64,000 nucleotides of DNA, taken from Blastocatellia bacterium. GTDB lineage: Bacteria; Acidobacteriota; Blastocatellia; RBC074. The stretch covers positions 4,210-68,209 of the forward strand of contig JANRKY010000047.1 in assembly GCA_033763135.1 (NCBI GenBank), read 5' to 3'. The notes under the pieces were generated by a model. That model did not search any database and was not told where the DNA came from. It saw nothing but the letters and a program-made list of their open reading frames with translations. This document shows, piece after piece, positions 6,122-45,662 of this stretch; the first letter of the stretch is position 1; every line of letters starts with the position of its first letter. The position numbers and the translations under genes were made by a program.

Positions 6122-6550
6122 ATGAACGTGCTCAAACAAATCCAAGACTATATTGCAGTTCAACCAGAACCCAAACGAAGCGACATGCAGGAGTTGCATG
6201 ACATCATTCTGAGATTGACGCCAGGATGTAAATTATGGTTTCTGGACGGCAAGGACGAGAGAGGGCAAACGGTTTCTAATCCAAACATCGGTTATGGATC
6301 CCAGGCCATAACGTATGCTGATGGAAAAACCAGAGAGTTCTATCAGGTTGGCATTAGTGGAAACACAACAGGAATCTCAGTCTATATAATGGGGATAAAA
6401 GACAAGAAGTACTTGGCTGAGACCTATGCGAAAAAAATCGGCAAGGCCAGCGTAACGGGGTATTGCATCAAGTTCAGGACTCTAAGAAATGTAAACATTG
6501 ATATTCTTGAGGCCGCAATGCGATATGGGATTGAGCAGACAAGCGCCTGA
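6122..6550 (+). CDS. DUF1801 (YdhG-like) domain protein
   Basis: SNPNIGYG and GKASVTGYCIKF motifs; RBS AAGGA; stop TGA overlaps an R''-like GCCTGAT. Confidence 0.8.
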   Translation: MNVLKQIQDYIAVQPEPKRSDMQELHDIILRLTPGCKLWFLDGKDERGQTVSNPNIGYGSQAITYADGKTREFYQVGISGNTTGISVYIMGIKDKKYLAETYAKKIGKASVTGYCIKFRTLRNVNIDILEAAMRYGIEQTSA

Positions 6551-6618
6551 TTCACGTTTTACCAGGGGTTCGTTGACGATAAGAATCGTCTCAGGCTCGG
6601 TCAACTCGTTCGTCAGGC
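6545..6618 (+). repeat. attC-family site, short form (GCCTGAT...GTCAGGC)
   Basis: R''-like box overlaps the stop codon. Internal GACGATAAGAATCGTC hairpin, then GGTCAAC-TCGTTC-GTCAGGC. Confidence 0.72.
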
Positions 6619-8878: not shown

Positions 8879-9036
8879 ATTCTTTGACGCGCGAGCTTGG
8901 GTCGGTTCGCGGGTCTTCGCTGGCGATGGGGAGATTGAGTGTGACGCCTTGCCGATGCGCTCAGTTACGATCAATCTTTGCGCTGTGTCCATCGGAGAGC
9001 TTCACGCGTAAGCGATCGCGAGTCATGGTATTTTTC

Positions 9037-9190
9037 GCCCAACCGCTCATTTGACTGGAGTTTCGGTGACGATAAGAATCGTCTCAAACCAGGCTGGAGC
9101 AGCGCCGCTGTAAGTCCCTTTTTAAATTGGCACGGCCTGGCTCTGTTCCTTGAGAGGCGCCGCCGATTTGATCCATGTCAACTTGAGCTG
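9037..9190 (+). repeat. Longest attC-family copy (canonical R'' GCCCAAC; right end eroded)
   Basis: Contains left and middle segments of the family. TCTCAA/TTGAGA and CCAGGCTG/CGGCCTGG inner stems; TTGAC/GTCAA L boxes. Confidence 0.7.
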
Positions 9191-9213
9191 CTCACTCGAA
9201 AATGCAGTGATCT

Positions 9214-9594
9214 ATGAACGTAATTAATGTTTCAAATCTCAATGGTTCTGAGTTTGACAAGATAGAGTCAGTGATATCGAGCCATAATCAACTGCTTGAT
9301 GTTCTCAATTGCGTTGAGATAGAGAAAGAGAAGCGGCTGAGCCCAGAAATCGTGACTCAAGATGAGTATACGCACGACATTGTGGTTGAATGGAAAGAGC
9401 CCATATATCTGGTATACGATACGAATTGACTGGGAGCGATTGCGGCGGTCGCCGTCTGGGATCATAAGCCAACAGAAGAAGAGCTATTGAACGCGAGAGT
9501 GGAACGTGGATGGTTGCCGACAGAGTCACGCGTTAAAGAAGGCGAAGCCGTATTGGGCTATGCCTGCCGCATCGGCGTCAATCATCGAAAGTAA
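9214..9594 (+). CDS. Putative selenoprotein of unknown family (in-frame TGA at 9427-9429)
   Basis: Frame stays open for 54 sense codons after the TGA (YDTN-U-LGAIAAVAVWDHKP...) to TAA 9592-9594. SECIS-like stem GCGGC-GGTC-GCCGT with the loop at +18..+21. Confidence 0.65.
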
Positions 9595-9666
9595 GCATTG
9601 AGCAGGATCGACTTTCCTTCTTTTGAAGAGAGGCAGGCGAAAAAGATCGCAACGCACTGTATTTTC

Positions 9667-9720
9667 GCCTAACCGCCCGTTTGACTGAGCCCCCTTCGCT
9701 TCCAGATCGATCCTTTTGGA
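9667..9720 (+). repeat. attC-family left end (R'' GCCTAAC)
   Basis: TATTTTCGCCTAACCGCCCGTTTGACTG matches 9029-9057; followed by a TTCCAGATCGATCC piece of the right segment. Confidence 0.6.
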
Positions 9721-9804
9721 GGGGAGCGAGTTAGGGATCGAGTGCTCTAACGGTTGCACTGATTCTTGGTGAAAACACTTCAAAGAAAAGATGAGAGAGA
9801 GGCC

Positions 9805-10212
9805 ATGCTGCGAATCATCTTGGGCGTGATTGCCGGATTTTTTGGCTGGGTGATAGGTTGGTTTGGAAGCGAGAAGGCTCTTTCGGCCATTTGGCCGGAG
9901 TGGTTCGGCGTTCAACAACGCGCGTTCCAGGCGGCCATTGAGAATGACGGTCAGTTCGCGCCCGATACGAGGTTTCTTCTCACGCAGATTCTCTGCGCTG
10001 CAATCGTTTCGGTGATGTCAGGATTTCTGGCGGCGCTGGTCGCCGGCGAAGCGCAGCGCGCGCCTCTGATTCTCGGCATTCTGCTACTGGCATTGGGCTT
10101 AATGAAGGCGGTTCTGTCCTGGAGGCATGTTCCTGTTTGGTATCATATTCTCTTCACGGCGATTCTGGTTTTAATGACGATTATGGGCGGCAAATTGAAA
10201 ACGACAGCTTAG
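9805..10212 (+). CDS. Hypothetical 4-TM membrane protein
   Basis: Four hydrophobic segments and a PVWYH motif; RBS GAGG. Confidence 0.75.
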   Translation: MLRIILGVIAGFFGWVIGWFGSEKALSAIWPEWFGVQQRAFQAAIENDGQFAPDTRFLLTQILCAAIVSVMSGFLAALVAGEAQRAPLILGILLLALGLMKAVLSWRHVPVWYHILFTAILVLMTIMGGKLKTTA

Positions 10213-10304: not shown

Positions 10305-11063
10305 ATGAAAATCGTCATAACTGCCTTATTGATAATTGCAGCCTCCATCACGAATTTAAACTGCGGTTCTCGAAAACAAGTCGCATTCGTTCCCAGGGAG
10401 GCGTACAAGACCAGCACGTTAATTGTGACCCAAATTGCCGGAAATTCCTTCAAGCATACCTCATTCAAGCAGACCAATGATTTTGGATATGTTCCATGCA
10501 ACGGGCTCATTGTGAGAAATGGCAATGAAGCAATTGTTTTCGACACGCCAACCAACGACAAGAGCTCAGGAGAATTGATCAAGTGGATAAAGGAGGAGCT
10601 CCATTGCAGGATAAATGCAGTTATTCCAACCCATTTTCACGACGATTGTCTGGGAGGGTTAACGGCGTTTGATGAGGATGGCATTCCTTCGTATGCGAAT
10701 TTCAGGACGATCGAGCTTGCGAGGGAGAACGGATTGGGCGTTCCCGGGAACAGCTTCAGGGATTCGCTTGTGCTGAAAGTGGGCGATGAGGAGGTTGTTG
10801 CGAAGTTTTTCGGAGAAGGACACACAAAGGATAATATCGTGGGATATTTCCCAAGTGAAGGCGTGATGTTCGGAGGTTGTCTGATAAAAGAGCTGAATGC
10901 AGGCAAGGGGTATTTGGGCGACGCCAATGTTGCGGATTGGTCCGCGACAGTTGAGCGAGTTAAGAAAGAGTATCCAGAGGTGGAAATTATTGTCCCAGGG
11001 CACGGAGAGCATGGGGACCAGAAGATACTTGATTATACGATTAACCTGTTCAAGGCTCAGTAG
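10305..11063 (+). CDS. bla: Subclass B1 metallo-beta-lactamase
   Basis: HFHDD (H116/H118/D120), GHTKDN (H196), GGCLIK (C221), PGHG (H263); upstream NGLIV and FDTP motifs; signal peptide ending LNC. Confidence 0.9.
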   Translation: MKIVITALLIIAASITNLNCGSRKQVAFVPREAYKTSTLIVTQIAGNSFKHTSFKQTNDFGYVPCNGLIVRNGNEAIVFDTPTNDKSSGELIKWIKEELHCRINAVIPTHFHDDCLGGLTAFDEDGIPSYANFRTIELARENGLGVPGNSFRDSLVLKVGDEEVVAKFFGEGHTKDNIVGYFPSEGVMFGGCLIKELNAGKGYLGDANVADWSATVERVKKEYPEVEIIVPGHGEHGDQKILDYTINLFKAQ

Positions 11064-11220: not shown

Positions 11221-11925
11221 ATGGAGGAGATTAAACAGCGATACCTTTCGCTCCTGCCAGACCTGCCGCGATGGGTGGAGACGCGGGATCTGCTGTTGTG
11301 GGAGGGGTCCGTCGTGCTTGAGAACTCGAGTCGGAGCGGCTTCATCGTGTGGAGTGAAGAAGACGCTCTGGGGGCGGTGGTCGGCGAGCCGGATCCCGTG
11401 GTCCTTGCTCGCGCGGCGAAGGATGTATCCGAGCTGCTTGCCTTCTCCGAAAACATTATGCAGGTGAGGTCTCTTCTCCCGGGCTTCCTGGCAGAGTCTG
11501 CCACGATCTATTCCGCACCAGCGCAACTGCCGTCGTCACCAGCTCATATCTGCCGAAAGATCGGTCAACGCGAGATTTCGTCGTTGCGGCACCTGTCTGC
11601 TGATTTGTTGGAGGAGCTGTCGGACGCGGCGGAGGACGGGAGAGCGGTTGTGGCCGCCCTTGATGGGGGGCTGCCGGTATCTTTTGCCTATGTTGCGTCG
11701 GAAACGGAGACGCTGTGGGATGTATCGATCGATACGATCGAAAGCCATCGTCGCCAGGGGTACGCGGCGGCGGCCGTCCTTTATCTTATGCGTCTTATGA
11801 GAAGGAAGCGGAAAGCTGCTGTATGGGGAGCGCTGGAAAGCAATCATGCATCATCGAATCTGGCACGACGCCTGGGGTTTACCGAAAACGACAAACTATG
11901 GGTTCTGACTTCAAGCGGCGCCTGA
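11221..11925 (+). CDS. GNAT family N-acetyltransferase
   Basis: HRRQGYA acetyl-CoA motif and NHASSNLARRLGF. Start could be 11182. Confidence 0.85.
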   Translation: MEEIKQRYLSLLPDLPRWVETRDLLLWEGSVVLENSSRSGFIVWSEEDALGAVVGEPDPVVLARAAKDVSELLAFSENIMQVRSLLPGFLAESATIYSAPAQLPSSPAHICRKIGQREISSLRHLSADLLEELSDAAEDGRAVVAALDGGLPVSFAYVASETETLWDVSIDTIESHRRQGYAAAAVLYLMRLMRRKRKAAVWGALESNHASSNLARRLGFTENDKLWVLTSSGA

Positions 11926-12006
11926 CGCATGTTTTAGAGGACGCGCCGCCGTCTTCGAGGGAAACCCATTCGGGCGGCGGCGGCCTGGTCGCCTCATTCG
12001 TCAGGC
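11920..12006 (+). repeat. attC-family site with complementary non-canonical core GCCTGAC...GTCAGGC
   Basis: R'' overlaps the TGA stop; GCCGCCG...CGGCGGC stem; TCATTC-GTCAGGC. Confidence 0.72.
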
Positions 12007-12030
12007 TCAATGAAACCGCGGAGGATGAAA

Positions 12031-14540: not shown

Positions 14541-14587
14541 GCCGCATTCGGGCCTTGATCATCGCTTCGGCCAGTGCGCCTTGAAGA

Positions 14588-14679
14588 ATCGACAGGATGG
14601 ACAGGATTTTTCAGGACGAACAGGATTCTCTGTTCACAATCATCCTGTAAATCCTGAAAATCCTGTTCATCCTGTCGAT
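14588..14679. repeat. CAGGAT-based tandem-repeat palindrome
   Basis: GACAGGATGGACAGGATTTTTCAGGAC...ATCCTGAAAATCCTGTTCATCCTGTC; second copy at 61104-61191. Confidence 0.8.
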
Positions 14680-21468: not shown

Positions 21469-21650
21469 CGAAAATCAGGGCGGGGGGCGATTCTGTCGCC
21501 CAACCCATTGAAAACACAAAAGCCTCAGGCGCATTGGGTGAAATTGCGCGTCTGAGGCTCAGAGTTGTCCCTGATTCGTCAAGGCGGAGTTCGACCGCCA
21601 TTGAAGACCACGCCGCGCTCTTTCATCCGAAGAGGGGTCGAAATTTTTCT

Positions 21651-21850
21651 TCAGGCAGGTCTCCTGACTCGGCATTCAATCAACGCGGCCTTCTCGCTCC
21701 GGAGGTCGGCGCAATGGCGCAGAGGTGCGTTGATCTTCGTTCCGGCGGACTGGCCGGACGTCATTGCCTTACAGTGGCGGTGACCGTGCGGGATTTACAC
21801 CCGCTTCCCTATTCTCCCGGCGCGTGTTGGCGACCGGGCACCCGAAGATT
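21651..21850 (-). promoter_or_regulatory. Cobalamin riboswitch
   Basis: Minus strand reads GGTGC...AATAGGGAAGCGGGTGTAAATCCCGCACGGTCACCGCCACTGT...GAGTCAGGAGACCTGCC (B12 box), directly upstream of btuF. Confidence 0.93.
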
Positions 21851-22184
21851 ATGAAAAGAACATTCTTGCTTGCCTACTTGCTTGCCTTCTTGCTTGATCG
21901 ACATCGAAAGCGGAACGTATCACGCCTTTCCGCGGGGCGTCAATGCTGAATGAAATGGGGGTGGAATGAAATATAACTTGAGCCGGCGACCGGAAACGGT
22001 GTAAACATGAGCCGTCCCGGAAGGCGCCCTTACTCCGCCGCCGCCAATCGGTCCCCAAAAAAATGTGTAATATGCGAGGGCGATATCTCACTAAAGGATT
22101 GAACATCGAGAGGACTCCCTCCAGGAAAATCGATCGCGAAAATAGATTGCACTGATTCAATATCAAGAATAGGAAAAAAAATCT

Positions 22185-26295: not shown

Positions 26296-27036
26296 ATGGC
26301 CACTTACGATGAAATGAGCCTGACGCACAGGCTTTTTATGAAGGGATATTCCTTTTCGCGGTATGCCGTCGATCCGGCGGGAGGCGCGAAATTGTCGATG
26401 CCGCTGGCGCAGGCGCGGGTTGCGCTGGTGACGACGGCGGGGTTGCGGGAGCCCTCGCAGGCCGATTTCGATCATTCGAAGAAGCAGGGAGACACGTCCT
26501 TTCGCGAGATTTCGAATGGGGTCGAGACGCAGCGTCTGATCGAGTCGCATCGCAGCAGCGCGTTCGATCATACGGGGATTGCGGCGGATCGCAACCTGGC
26601 GTTTCCGCTCGATCGGTTTCGCGAGCTGGCGGCGCGCGGCGTGGTGGGGGAGTTGAATGAGCGCCATTTCAGTTTCATGGGATCGATCGTCAAGCCGCGT
26701 CCGTTGATCGAGGAGACGGCGCCGGAGGTGGCGCGAATGCTCCGGGAAGACGGCGTGACGGCCGTTTTTCTCACGCCCGTCTGACCGATGTGCAATCAGA
26801 CGGTCGGTCTGATACAAGCGGCGATCGAGCGCGAAGGGATCGCTGCGGTCTCCATCACCCTGCTGCGCGAAGTGACCCGGGTGATCCGGCCTTCGCGAGC
26901 GCTCTTCGCGCCCTATCCGATGGGGTTTCCCCTGGGACGGGCGAATGACGCGGAGTTGCAGCATCGGATTATCGCGGAGGCGCTCCGGTTGCTGGAGCGC
27001 GAAGATTTCCCAATTCTGGAAGAGTTCAATCCATGA
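26296..27036 (+). CDS. Glycine/sarcosine/betaine reductase selenoprotein B-like protein (Sec at TGA 26782-26784)
   Basis: ALVTTAG, DRNLAFP, FSFMG motifs and LTPV-U-PMC (UxxC). The two ORF-track ORFs are in frame. SECIS hairpin ATCAGAC-GGTCG-GTCTGAT. Confidence 0.88.
26795..26813 (+). promoter_or_regulatory. Bacterial SECIS element
   Basis: Perfect 7-bp stem spanning +11..+29 after UGA, with a GGUCG loop. Confidence 0.8.
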
Positions 27037-38023: not shown

Positions 38024-38147
38024 GCACGGATGTCGTCGATTGTGTGAATCCAAACAGATACCTCGCGAAATTGATTGAATCAGGATGGGGGCTGAGAGCG
38101 GCGCCGACAGGATCGGCGCCGGCATGAAATCGGCGTTCAACAGGAAC

Positions 38148-38180
38148 GGGGCAGGGCGACTGCGGAGGAGGCCCTGCCCC
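38148..38180 (-). terminator. Hairpin after the 38186-39061 gene
   Basis: GGGGCAGGGC...GCCCTGCCCC. Confidence 0.5.
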
Positions 38181-38185
38181 GATTC

Positions 38186-39061
38186 TTATGGTTTATCGAC
38201 TGCGTCGGCCGGTTTGTTGACGTTCTCGGCCTTGAAGGCCTTCTCTTCGAGTTGGACGTTGAAGACCGACTCGACGACCTTTCGCTCCTCGACGATCTTG
38301 TCGTCCTGATAGACCACGGTCTCGTAGGGGACCAGCGTATTCTGGATCCAGCGGAAATTCTTGAAATAGAGCCGGTATTTGACGGGCGCGGCGTCCGGGG
38401 TCGGCTTCTCCTCATAGCTGAGATAGATGACGTGGCCCGATTTTCTGCTGACCTCGTACCGGGTGCGGACGCCATCAGGGCTGATCAGGTCGATGAGATC
38501 GAGTTCGAGGGTGGCCAGTTTGTAGGAGCCCGCGTATTCGAGCCTGGCGTTGTTCTCCTTGTAACGAAGGAGGGCTTCATAGCTGTGTTCGTGGGCGGCG
38601 CGGAACCCGCGAACGGCGTCGGCGCTCGGCTCCTGAATCTCGCCGTCGTGGATCGCCCAGGTCTGTTTGCCGTCGAACCCGATGGTGTATTTGGTGCCGG
38701 GCAGTTCGAGTTCGATCATCAGCAGATCTTCCTTGAGGGTCGTCTTGCGGATGAATCGGGTGACGGACTTGCCTTCGCGGGCGCCATCGGGGCCGATGAA
38801 CTTCACCAGCGCGCGGAGGGTCCCGTTGCGCTGCACGCCGTATACGGCCAGCCGGGAGCCGTACGCCAGGAGGGCGCGCTCCACGAGGTCTTCCGGTTTC
38901 GGGGGCGGCGTTTTCTGGGCGTTGGAGGCTTTTCCATCCTGTGCAAAGACCGGCTGCCATGCCGCTGCCGACAAGCAGCAGCAAAAGGCGAGAACGAGGA
39001 GAACCGTATTGGGACGCTGAGCGCGCAGCGTCGACTTCTTTACCAGCATTTGATTTGACAC
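38186..39061 (-). CDS. Hypothetical secreted protein, LolA/lipoprotein-sorting-like fold
   Basis: Signal peptide; GFDGKQTW, F.NFR...LVPYE, FNVQLEEKAF motifs. Confidence 0.7.
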   Translation of the reverse strand: MSNQMLVKKSTLRAQRPNTVLLVLAFCCCLSAAAWQPVFAQDGKASNAQKTPPPKPEDLVERALLAYGSRLAVYGVQRNGTLRALVKFIGPDGAREGKSVTRFIRKTTLKEDLLMIELELPGTKYTIGFDGKQTWAIHDGEIQEPSADAVRGFRAAHEHSYEALLRYKENNARLEYAGSYKLATLELDLIDLISPDGVRTRYEVSRKSGHVIYLSYEEKPTPDAAPVKYRLYFKNFRWIQNTLVPYETVVYQDDKIVEERKVVESVFNVQLEEKAFKAENVNKPADAVDKP

Positions 39062-39348: not shown

Positions 39349-40460
<1,112 letters not shown>

Positions 40461-45312: not shown

Positions 45313-45662
45313 GGATGGGGAGCGAAAAAGAAGGGGTGTGCAAGGGCAACCGCTTGGCCGTAAACGGGGCTTCATTTGAACCTGTCTGTAACAGGTGGGT
45401 GACCTTGAAAAGCCCTGCGGCGTAAGAGATTCGCGCGTTGGCGATCGTGCTTGCCGACAGGAAGCATCGGCCTCCCGATCAAACGAATTGGCTCAAATAG
45501 AAGTGCCGCCGCCTACTAACGTCGCAGTCGCCCTGCAACGATCGGTATGCTAGCCGAGGGGGTAGACCCGGTCAATACCCTTAATCAAAATCTTTTCCGC
45601 GCGTCGGAAGAGGCGACCGCTTGACCGGCTCTGGTGGGTTGGTTATCCTTTCTTCTTTTTCG
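45313..45662 (+). ncRNA. Candidate structured non-coding RNA, family not recognised
   Basis: TACAAT -10 box at 45301; 11-bp terminal helix 45323-45333/45652-45662; nested helices and a possible pseudoknot; no ORF. Confidence 0.55.

Follow-up and report, generated by a model that had tools for sequence, protein, structure and literature searches.

A window of 64,000 nt on contig JANRKY010000047.1 (here C47) of a Blastocatellia bacterium (assembly GCA_033763135.1) was analyzed around positions 9214-9594, where a short open reading frame (ORF) is predicted to encode a selenocysteine (Sec) protein. Translation of the window gives 71 codons from the ATG to a TGA at 9427-9429. Past this TGA, the frame stays open for 54 sense codons, with zero ATG, up to the TAA at 9592-9594, giving a read-through product of 126 aa with the Sec context Y-D-T-N/T-U-L-G. 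A hairpin directly follows the TGA, attC-like elements lie on both sides of the gene, and a second gene with an in-frame TGA, resembling GrdB and PrdB, is present in the same window (Table 1). The earlier note, made from the DNA letters, had described the 71-aa ORF ending at TGA, its ATG-free 54-codon continuation to 126 aa, the left end of the next attC at 9667, a GCGGC/GCCGT stem with a GGTC loop at +18 to +21, and the same loop sequence and offset in the gene at 26782. All of these descriptions were reproduced, with the loop lying 18-21 nt past the A of the TGA and, in both genes, GGTC occupying nt 21-24 from its T.

Table 1. Positions of the predicted features in the window.
Feature	Position	Strand	Description
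Predicted selenoprotein gene	9214..9594	+	126 codons, ATG 9214, Sec codon 72, TAA 9592-9594; translation, and homologs conserved on both sides of the TGA
UGA predicted to be read as selenocysteine U72	9427..9429	+	Column is TGA in 79/80 best loci and Cys in 12/29 spanning proteins
Predicted SECIS hairpin	9442..9455	+	Stem GCGGC 9442-9446 / GCCGT 9451-9455, apical loop GGUC 9447-9450; conserved in 80 homologs
Left half of upstream attC-like element	9032..9055	+	GCCCAAC 9037-9043; remainder to ~9200 long and degenerate
attC-like site closing the cassette	9667..9736 (element from 9662)	+	R'' GCCTAAC 9667-9673, R' GTTAGGG 9730-9736
GrdB/PrdB-like selenoprotein gene	26296-27033	+	246 aa, U163 in a U-P-M-C motif, TGA 26782-26784

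Homologs were collected by three routes. A word-indexed protein search returned 61 matches at E ≤ 1, and 19 of the proteins were fetched. Eighteen are 70-101 aa long and terminate at the residue before the window's TGA (...LVYDT followed by T or N), while the nineteenth, P0004, has Arg at the Sec column followed by sequence clearly homologous to the read-through part of the window protein. This Arg form is nearly identical to the Sec form L091. Additionally, 401 genomes of the phylum, including the source genome (G000), were searched with stops read through (E ≤ 0.01), and 18 genomes matched. Sixteen are genuine family members, including the source genome, and show a single TGA at the same column in 13 cases and TGC or TGT in three, all of one genus. 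The matches L032 (E 0.0012) and L033 (E 0.0048) showed the family motif in no frame and were dropped as spurious. The sample holds three unpublished genomes (G049, G152, and G024), none of them family-bearing, which affect only its denominator and the SelA count of 299/401 given below. A 17-row alignment, A1, includes 13 Sec forms (the window and 12 phylum-sample genomes), and in it the 54 downstream codons of the window retain all family-invariant residues.

A search of GTDB at one genome per species gave 441 loci with a relative, and codons were tallied on the best 80, selected by a peptide pattern containing His54. The Sec column reads TGA in 79 of these loci and TGC in one. By our own tally of record labels, the 80 comprise 30 of Acidobacteriota type, 22 Gemmatimonadota, 21 Myxococcota, 3 Planctomycetota, and 4 others, and the Myxococcota-type loci include isolates labelled Nannocystis radixulma and Paraliomyxa miuraensis. 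Downstream of the TGA, the entropies at codon positions 1, 2, and 3 are 0.92, 0.69, and 1.65 bits in the 80 sequences. Frame 0 has a mean pairwise identity of 0.569 and no stop, as against identities of 0.26 and 0.25 with 69 and 75 stops in frames 1 and 2. The third-position variation, together with the open and conserved frame 0, indicates that the upstream and downstream parts are translated in one frame.

An exhaustive profile search over 1.84 billion cluster representatives (50% identity) yielded 805 representatives matching the family at E ≤ 0.001. Among the best 150, 67 are N-terminal halves, every one ending at profile position 70 or 71, 55 are C-terminal halves with starts scattered from 72 to 81, and 28 span the Sec column. 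Judged from these records, this is what a selenoprotein family looks like once gene callers have cut it at the UGA. Named database entries for the truncated halves read 'hypothetical protein', and the Cys forms are single uninterrupted proteins. At the Sec column, 29 spanning proteins show Cys (12), Trp (4), Ser (4), Arg (3), Gly (1), Pro (1), Val (1), or a gap (3). Since Cys, Trp, Ser, Arg, and Gly are each one base from TGA, this spectrum fits TGA as the ancestral state. The family, as predicted, is large, and its Sec forms are far more numerous than its Cys forms. The non-Cys replacement homologs (P0065, P0067, P0070, P0071, P0073, P0075, P0076, P0081, P0083, P0084, P0111, and P0004, with Trp, Ser, Arg, or Gly at the Sec column) for the most part also lack His54. 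Trp forms with true TGG codons and those with TGA called under another genetic code are indistinguishable here.

The RNA 3' of the TGA was compared across 80 different sequences of Sec forms, taking the T of TGA as column 1. The stem pairs 16-29, 17-28, 18-27, 19-26, and 20-25 are kept in 77, 76, 78, 80, and 79 of the 80, respectively. A further pair, 15-30, which joins two third-codon positions, is kept in 64 (among the types listed, GC 43, CG 13, AT 4, and GT 3). The apical loop is GGTC in 58 sequences, AGTT in 20, and CGTC in 2, so that G-U at columns 22-23 is invariant (80/80) and columns 21 and 24 covary, with G..C in 58 and A..U in 20. The SECIS (selenocysteine insertion sequence) of Escherichia coli fdhF also exposes G-U in a GGUC loop. 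The peptide encoded by the stem is T-A-V-A-V in most members and A-A-V-A-V in the window. Third-position entropies of codons +5 to +8 are 0.27, 0.97, 0.81, and 0.17 bit, compared with 1.4-1.9 bits for most other codons, and this freezing of four-fold degenerate third positions over the stem indicates an RNA-level constraint. The bacterial SECIS (bSECIS) model, as set out in the Fig. 2 legend of the review PMC13188914, has an apical loop of 3-9 nt, a stem of 4-16 bp, G in the first two loop positions, 16-37 nt from UGA to loop, and a minimum free energy (MFE) of at most -7.5 kcal/mol. The window element agrees with the values of that legend, having a 4-nt loop, a 5-bp stem, G in the first two loop positions, and a spacing of 17 nt.

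The GrdB/PrdB-like gene of the same window offers an internal comparison. Its protein reads ...VFLTPV-U-PMCNQ..., and its top NCBIfam matches are PrdB and GrdB-type selenoprotein B families, all under their cut-offs, with PrdB TIGR04483 the best at 126.8 bits. The hairpin 3' of its TGA is ATCAGAC-GGTC-GGTCTGAT. The two genes share the GGUC apical loop at an equal distance from the UGA, whereas the GrdB/PrdB-like protein is unrelated and longer, carries a UxxC motif (VUPMC), and lies outside any cassette. Given the same loop at the same distance, both genes are presumably read by the same SelB.

The source genome (7.99 Mb, 393 contigs) encodes SelA (444.8 bits), SelB (357.5 bits, cut-off 242.25), and SelD (357.4 bits), all above their cut-offs, and has tRNA-SeC(tca) at C154:3967-4065. 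Its SelD gene itself has an in-frame TGA. Each of the other 15 phylum-sample genomes that carry the family also has SelA. The earlier note had proposed a 126-aa Sec protein and had named three outcomes beforehand that could refute it: a non-Cys residue at the aligned position, an unconserved downstream part, or hosts lacking the Sec machinery. All three came out in favor of the proposal. TGA holds the column in the loci and Cys is the commonest residue in the spanning proteins, with Arg, Trp, Ser, and Gly in the minority; the downstream part is conserved in frame; and selA, selB, selD, and tRNA-Sec are present in the source genome.

Several observations weigh against this interpretation of the decoding or reduce the force of its evidence. 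Alone, the window hairpin is at chance level (50-nt fold z = 0.00, with 94 of 200 shuffles folding at least as well), so the SECIS case rests on the comparison with homologs. The MFE of the 26-nt window hairpin, -7.5 kcal/mol, lies exactly on the limit given in the Fig. 2 legend of PMC13188914. The T-A-V-A-V peptide forces most of the stem bases, and hence the third positions alone are independent evidence. In a 13-sequence alignment, 15-16 of 500 shuffles reach the observed values, which makes this a moderate control. Among three Cys forms, L017 is still able to form the stem and the other two have lost it, and the Sec forms L022 and L027 lack an in-register stem. Trp, Ser, Arg, Gly, or Pro stands at the Sec column of 13 of the 29 spanning proteins, which implies that Sec or Cys is dispensable in some lineages. 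SelA occurs in 299 of the 401 phylum genomes, so its presence in 15 of 15 hosts is a weak test that adds little support.

Based on the homologs, the hairpin columns, and the host machinery taken together, SelB-dependent decoding of UGA72 through an in-ORF hairpin, yielding a 126-aa selenoprotein, is strongly supported. The gene, cut short by databases at the TGA, almost certainly encodes a predicted Sec protein of 126 residues, and 9214-9594 is best explained as an intact and real selenoprotein gene with a canonical decoding mechanism. In the proposed mechanism, the UGA at codon 72 would be read as Sec during translation. The mRNA just 3' of it would fold into a stem of 5-6 bp with an apical N-G-U-N' loop, 17 nt from UGA to loop, and SelB with Sec-tRNA(Sec) would be expected to bind this hairpin. 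The peptide after the UGA would thereby double as the stem, with synonymous positions fixed to preserve it.

The surroundings of the gene suggest that it is carried as a single-ORF cassette in an integron-type attC array. The outer arms of the attC-like site 3' of the ORF pair on folding, with an unexceptional energy (z = -0.84). This site is homologous along its length to a hairpin element at C90:39290-39385 of the source genome (TTTTCGCCTAACCG...GTTAGGT, -47.8 kcal/mol), which lies ~1.8 kb from an integron integrase gene, IntI (C90:36586-37527, TIGR02249 467.6 bits, 2.8 kb from the contig end). The element on C90 shares the 24-nt left-half motif, which has exactly two matches in the window (9032-9055 and the element 3' of the ORF) with 0 expected by chance. 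The homology to the attC beside IntI indicates that the 3' element is an attC of the source genome's integron type. Contig C90 ends at 40284, with at least one strong attC between the integrase gene and that end; selA (C90:18984-20069) lies on the same contig, ~17 kb from the integrase gene.

The ORFs of the array around 9214-9594 are short, lie on one strand, and belong to unrelated families (RibD_C, DUF1801, SDR, CPCC/DUF6714, glyoxalase, a membrane protein, metallo-beta-lactamase, and GNAT); they are separated by repeated elements that cluster on contig C47. As in integron cassettes, which consist of a promoterless ORF and an attC, there is a single ORF followed by an imperfect hairpin with inverse cores (GCCTAAC ... 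GTTAGGG), the neighboring ORFs are short, unrelated, and on the same strand, and a homologous attC lies beside a TIGR02249 integrase in the same genome. It differs from them in the location of the integrase, on another contig, and in its heterogeneous attC sites, some with GCCTGAC/GTCAGGC cores. A strict hairpin scan for RYYYAAC...GTTRRRY found no attC in the array, its sole match (38135-38257) being unrelated, and the heterogeneous sites were recognized by comparison only. Two facts speak against the cassette: no IntI was found on C47, and the upstream attC is degenerate, with no clean closing stem found by folding. The cassette claimed by the earlier note is supported by the homology of the element 3' of the ORF to the attC beside IntI; the integrase, however, lies off the window's contig, and the upstream site is degenerate.

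With the IntI of the source genome as a tblastn query, no integrase was detected in any of 95 homolog loci, so the family is not generally integron-borne and looks chromosomal in most genomes. Together with a stable synteny in Pyrinomonadaceae, this indicates that cassette capture is a feature of the source genome and not of the family. Because its bacterial SECIS is internal to the ORF, the cassette would carry what a Sec-competent host needs for decoding.

Other elements of the array were also noted. The attC-like sites at 11918-12008 and 6545-6615 have the core pair GCCTGAC/GTCAGGC instead of RYYYAAC/GTTRRRY; the former folds with z = -3.12, and its first core shares bases with the stop codon of the GNAT gene. 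An inverted-repeat scan gave one clear attC-type pair, at 11920-12006. Between two array ORFs, 14585-14679 contains dense inverted repeats of CAGGAT-type units with arms of up to 25 nt that are 76-96% complementary, unlike the attC-type elements. The cassette two ORFs downstream of the selenoprotein gene (10305-11063, + strand) encodes a subclass B1 metallo-beta-lactamase (NF033088, 266.6 bits, cut-off 200) with an N-terminal signal-like segment; its nearest named family, CHM, scores 418.8 bits and does not reach the cut-off of 475. This is an environmental carbapenemase-type gene in an attC array. Among metagenome contigs, one of run X2 (sludge) joins 9075 to 9697, skipping 621 nt between the attC left halves with 21 nt on one side, and one of run X3 (soil) joins 9045 to 9856 in inverted orientation. 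These joints may mean that a cassette was lost or rearranged, or they may be artefacts of assembling repeats, the contigs being short and of low depth.

Pfam-A and NCBIfam 20.0 scans of 17 members gave zero meaningful matches, and a PDB sequence profile search gave none at E ≤ 10. In the 2026 review PMC13188914, Table 1 covers 119 selenoprotein families and subfamilies of prokaryotes and gives a domain identifier for every one; a search of that table for TUL, ULG, and TTU-type motifs gave zero matches. Literature searches found no description of the family in the texts covered; the supplementary lists of BSepDB (PMC13326102), which according to that paper compiles 111 previously reported families, and of deep-Sep (PMC12013277) could hold it as a 'hypothetical protein' entry. 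With neither a library nor a literature match, the family is probably undescribed in the libraries and papers checked, and the earlier note's claim of an unrecognized family holds so far against Pfam, NCBIfam, PDB, and the motifs of the PMC13188914 table.

Like the bacterial families in that table, the present one has an in-frame UGA that aligns with Cys between conserved flanks, an in-ORF bSECIS directly 3' of the UGA, and a host with selABCD. In contrast to them, as far as Table 1 goes, its 17 members match no Pfam or NCBIfam model where each listed family has an InterPro-type domain identifier, the T-T-U-L-G context is absent from the listed Sec motifs, a CxxU or UxxC motif is lacking, and Sec forms far outnumber Cys forms. 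The families of Haft (bioRxiv 10.1101/2022.07.06.499078; strategy in PMC13188914) likewise came to light when the frame was extended past the UGA of database entries that stop right at the Sec site; these carry NCBIfam (NF) accessions in the same table, and the family of 9214-9594 matches none in NCBIfam release 20.0. The gene appears to be an example of an already known class, the bacterial selenoproteins, in which the family itself is unrecognized and the Sec context unusual. Taking Sec decoding, family, and cassette together and leaving function aside, we regard this selenoprotein interpretation of 9214-9594 as very probable.

Assignment to the thioredoxin fold found no support: CxxU and UxxC motifs are absent, the three residues on either side of Sec include no Cys, and no family member matches the Trx, Redoxin, or AhpC models of Pfam. 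An AlphaFold2 (AF2) model (mean predicted local distance difference test score, pLDDT, 83.3; predicted template modeling score, pTM, 0.79) arranges its elements as beta1-alpha1-alpha2-beta2-beta3-beta4-beta5-alpha3-alpha4 and places Sec72 at the turn between beta4 and beta5. Foldseek against PDB gave nothing at E ≤ 0.001 (best E 0.045). VIA-align against 48,161 chains gave OsmE 4dm5_A as its best match (Z 5.2, root-mean-square deviation 3.0, 81 aligned) and several RelE/HigB/YafQ chains at Z 3.1-3.9, all below the meaningful Z of 8. The OsmE/BamE-like and RelE/HigB-like folds share the secondary-structure order beta-alpha-alpha-beta4-alpha with the model, without sequence relation. An ESM Atlas search with the Cys-form homolog P0063 yielded no usable match. 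As neither Foldseek nor VIA-align found a trustworthy relative, we describe the fold as having no clear match and not as a new fold.

The residues around Sec72 give some indication of its role. The motif Asp50-Glu51-x-x-His54-Asp55 is invariant, with His54 invariant in A1, and by the strand register of the AF2 model Sec72 would adjoin it. His54 is retained by 8 of the 12 Cys forms, as against 5 of the 14 forms that have some other residue at the Sec column, which suggests that proteins without the selenol or thiol tend to lose the His too. At least 90% of the A1 rows have Cys118, which could serve as a resolving partner of Sec72 in most members, a pairing with the C-terminal Cys that the earlier note had raised as possible. 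It is missing in the Sec forms L022, L045, L076, L093, L102, and L107, so a Sec-Cys selenenylsulfide is possible and not universal. AhpC/TSA or redoxin genes occur within a few kb in two neighbor clusters (13 and 9 of the 80 loci, mostly Pyrinomonadaceae; one member of each cluster and L081 were scanned against Pfam), and such peroxiredoxin-type neighbors in some lineages are a faint redox hint. On these grounds, we tentatively suggest that Sec72, working with His54, is a catalytic or redox selenolate, an assignment that carries more doubt than confidence. Three points limit it: the search pattern of the 80 loci contained His54, which makes its conservation there circular; no operon partner conserved across phyla was found among the neighbors; and no CxxU or UxxC motif was found in the protein.

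The neighborhoods themselves are lineage-specific. In the Pyrinomonadaceae type (L057, L066, L067, L074, L078, L080, L088, L100, L109, L111, and others), a same-strand gene for a HEAT-repeat/cyclophilin protein of ~750 aa lies immediately 5' of the family gene or overlaps it by 1-4 nt, and on the 3' side of the family gene come DUF4112 and two divergent AhpC/TSA genes. A Gemmatimonadota neighbor is an ATP-grasp/CoA-ligase gene. As clues to function, these neighbors (HEAT-cyclophilin, DUF4112, AhpC/TSA, and ATP-grasp/CoA-ligase) are weak hints.

The strongest competitor accepts the selenoprotein and assigns Sec72 a different task, as a metal or metalloid ligand together with His54, Asp, Glu, and Cys118, for example in soft-metal sequestration or trafficking. 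Asp50, Glu51, His54, Asp55, Sec72, and Cys118 make a plausible conserved ligand set, the missing CxxU/UxxC redox motif is compatible with such a role, and the adjoining cassettes are of adaptive type (glyoxalase-type, metallo-beta-lactamase, and GNAT). However, no metal-resistance or transport gene is a conserved neighbor, no metal-binding family was matched, and Cys118 is missing in several Sec forms, as noted above. We consider the ligand role unlikely, below the catalytic or redox selenolate in probability.

A second alternative concerns the decoding itself. The UGA could be read as a standard amino acid (Trp, Cys, Gly, or Arg) by a near-cognate tRNA, with the hairpin acting solely as a read-through stimulator, and the four Trp, three Arg, and one Gly residues at the column in spanning homologs would agree with this. 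Against it, the hairpin fits the Sec-specific bSECIS model, in the terms of the Fig. 2 legend of PMC13188914, in loop, spacing, and G-U, and it matches the SECIS of the GrdB/PrdB-like gene in the same genome. Moreover, Cys is the commonest replacement and the host has the full Sec machinery. Decoding as a standard amino acid is, in our judgment, very improbable.

Still less probable is the annotation as it stands in the databases, in which the TGA is an ordinary stop, the product has 71 aa, and the downstream stretch is a separate small gene or regulatory region. Gene callers annotate it in this way, all but one of the fetched proteins end before the TGA, N- and C-terminal halves dominate the best 150 representatives, and a mechanical ORF starting with TTG can be drawn at 9487-9594. 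Yet the halves are adjacent, in the same frame, and gapless in 79 of 80 loci, the downstream codons offer no ATG, and the C-half starts are scattered as expected for arbitrary start picks. The Cys forms, moreover, run uninterrupted, and the synonymous sites of the hairpin are frozen. Finally, decay of the window copy into a pseudogene by a nonsense mutation, which would suit an array type that accumulates broken genes and the degenerate upstream attC, is already contradicted by the comparative data, as TGA is the majority state across phyla (79/80), the downstream codons keep every family-invariant residue, and independent contigs of the metagenome runs X1 (9192-9596), X3 (9356-9576), and X5 (9412-9686) match it with 0 differences over these stretches, X1 possibly being from the window's own source sample.

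Selenocysteine decoding of UGA72 in a widespread family thus remains our interpretation, and several implications follow if it is true. With the bacterial SECIS located within the ORF, Sec genes could travel as self-contained cassettes, and the position of the gene in an attC array would mean that integrons can hold selenoprotein genes, functional only in Sec-competent hosts. For annotation, the 805 representatives and 441 loci would be stored mostly as two meaningless fragments, leaving the proteomes of common soil and sludge Acidobacteriota, Gemmatimonadota, and Myxococcota short of a real protein. The strong excess of Sec over Cys forms suggests a chemistry in which selenium matters, and the Sec context, a beta-turn by D-E-x-x-H-D without CxxU or UxxC, would be unlike the thioredoxin-like majority of known families. 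The hairpin would also be a clean natural case of a SECIS overlapping coding sequence that could refine bSECIS models. A more far-reaching combination would make the gene the founding member of a widespread, Sec-dominated family that is absent from the libraries and papers checked and has a fold without a clear solved relative, with Sec beside Asp-Glu-x-x-His-Asp as a new type of selenoenzyme active site, and the first selenoprotein seen as an integron cassette; we hold this combined view to be conceivable, at somewhat less than an even chance.

Outside the array, an Rfam scan of the window, for which it was not checked whether Rfam has an applicable bacterial SECIS or attC family, returned two RNAs only: a cobalamin riboswitch at 21637-21860 (- strand, 101 bits) and a 6S RNA at 45343-45533 (- strand), whose 46.8 bits barely exceed the gathering score of 46.4.

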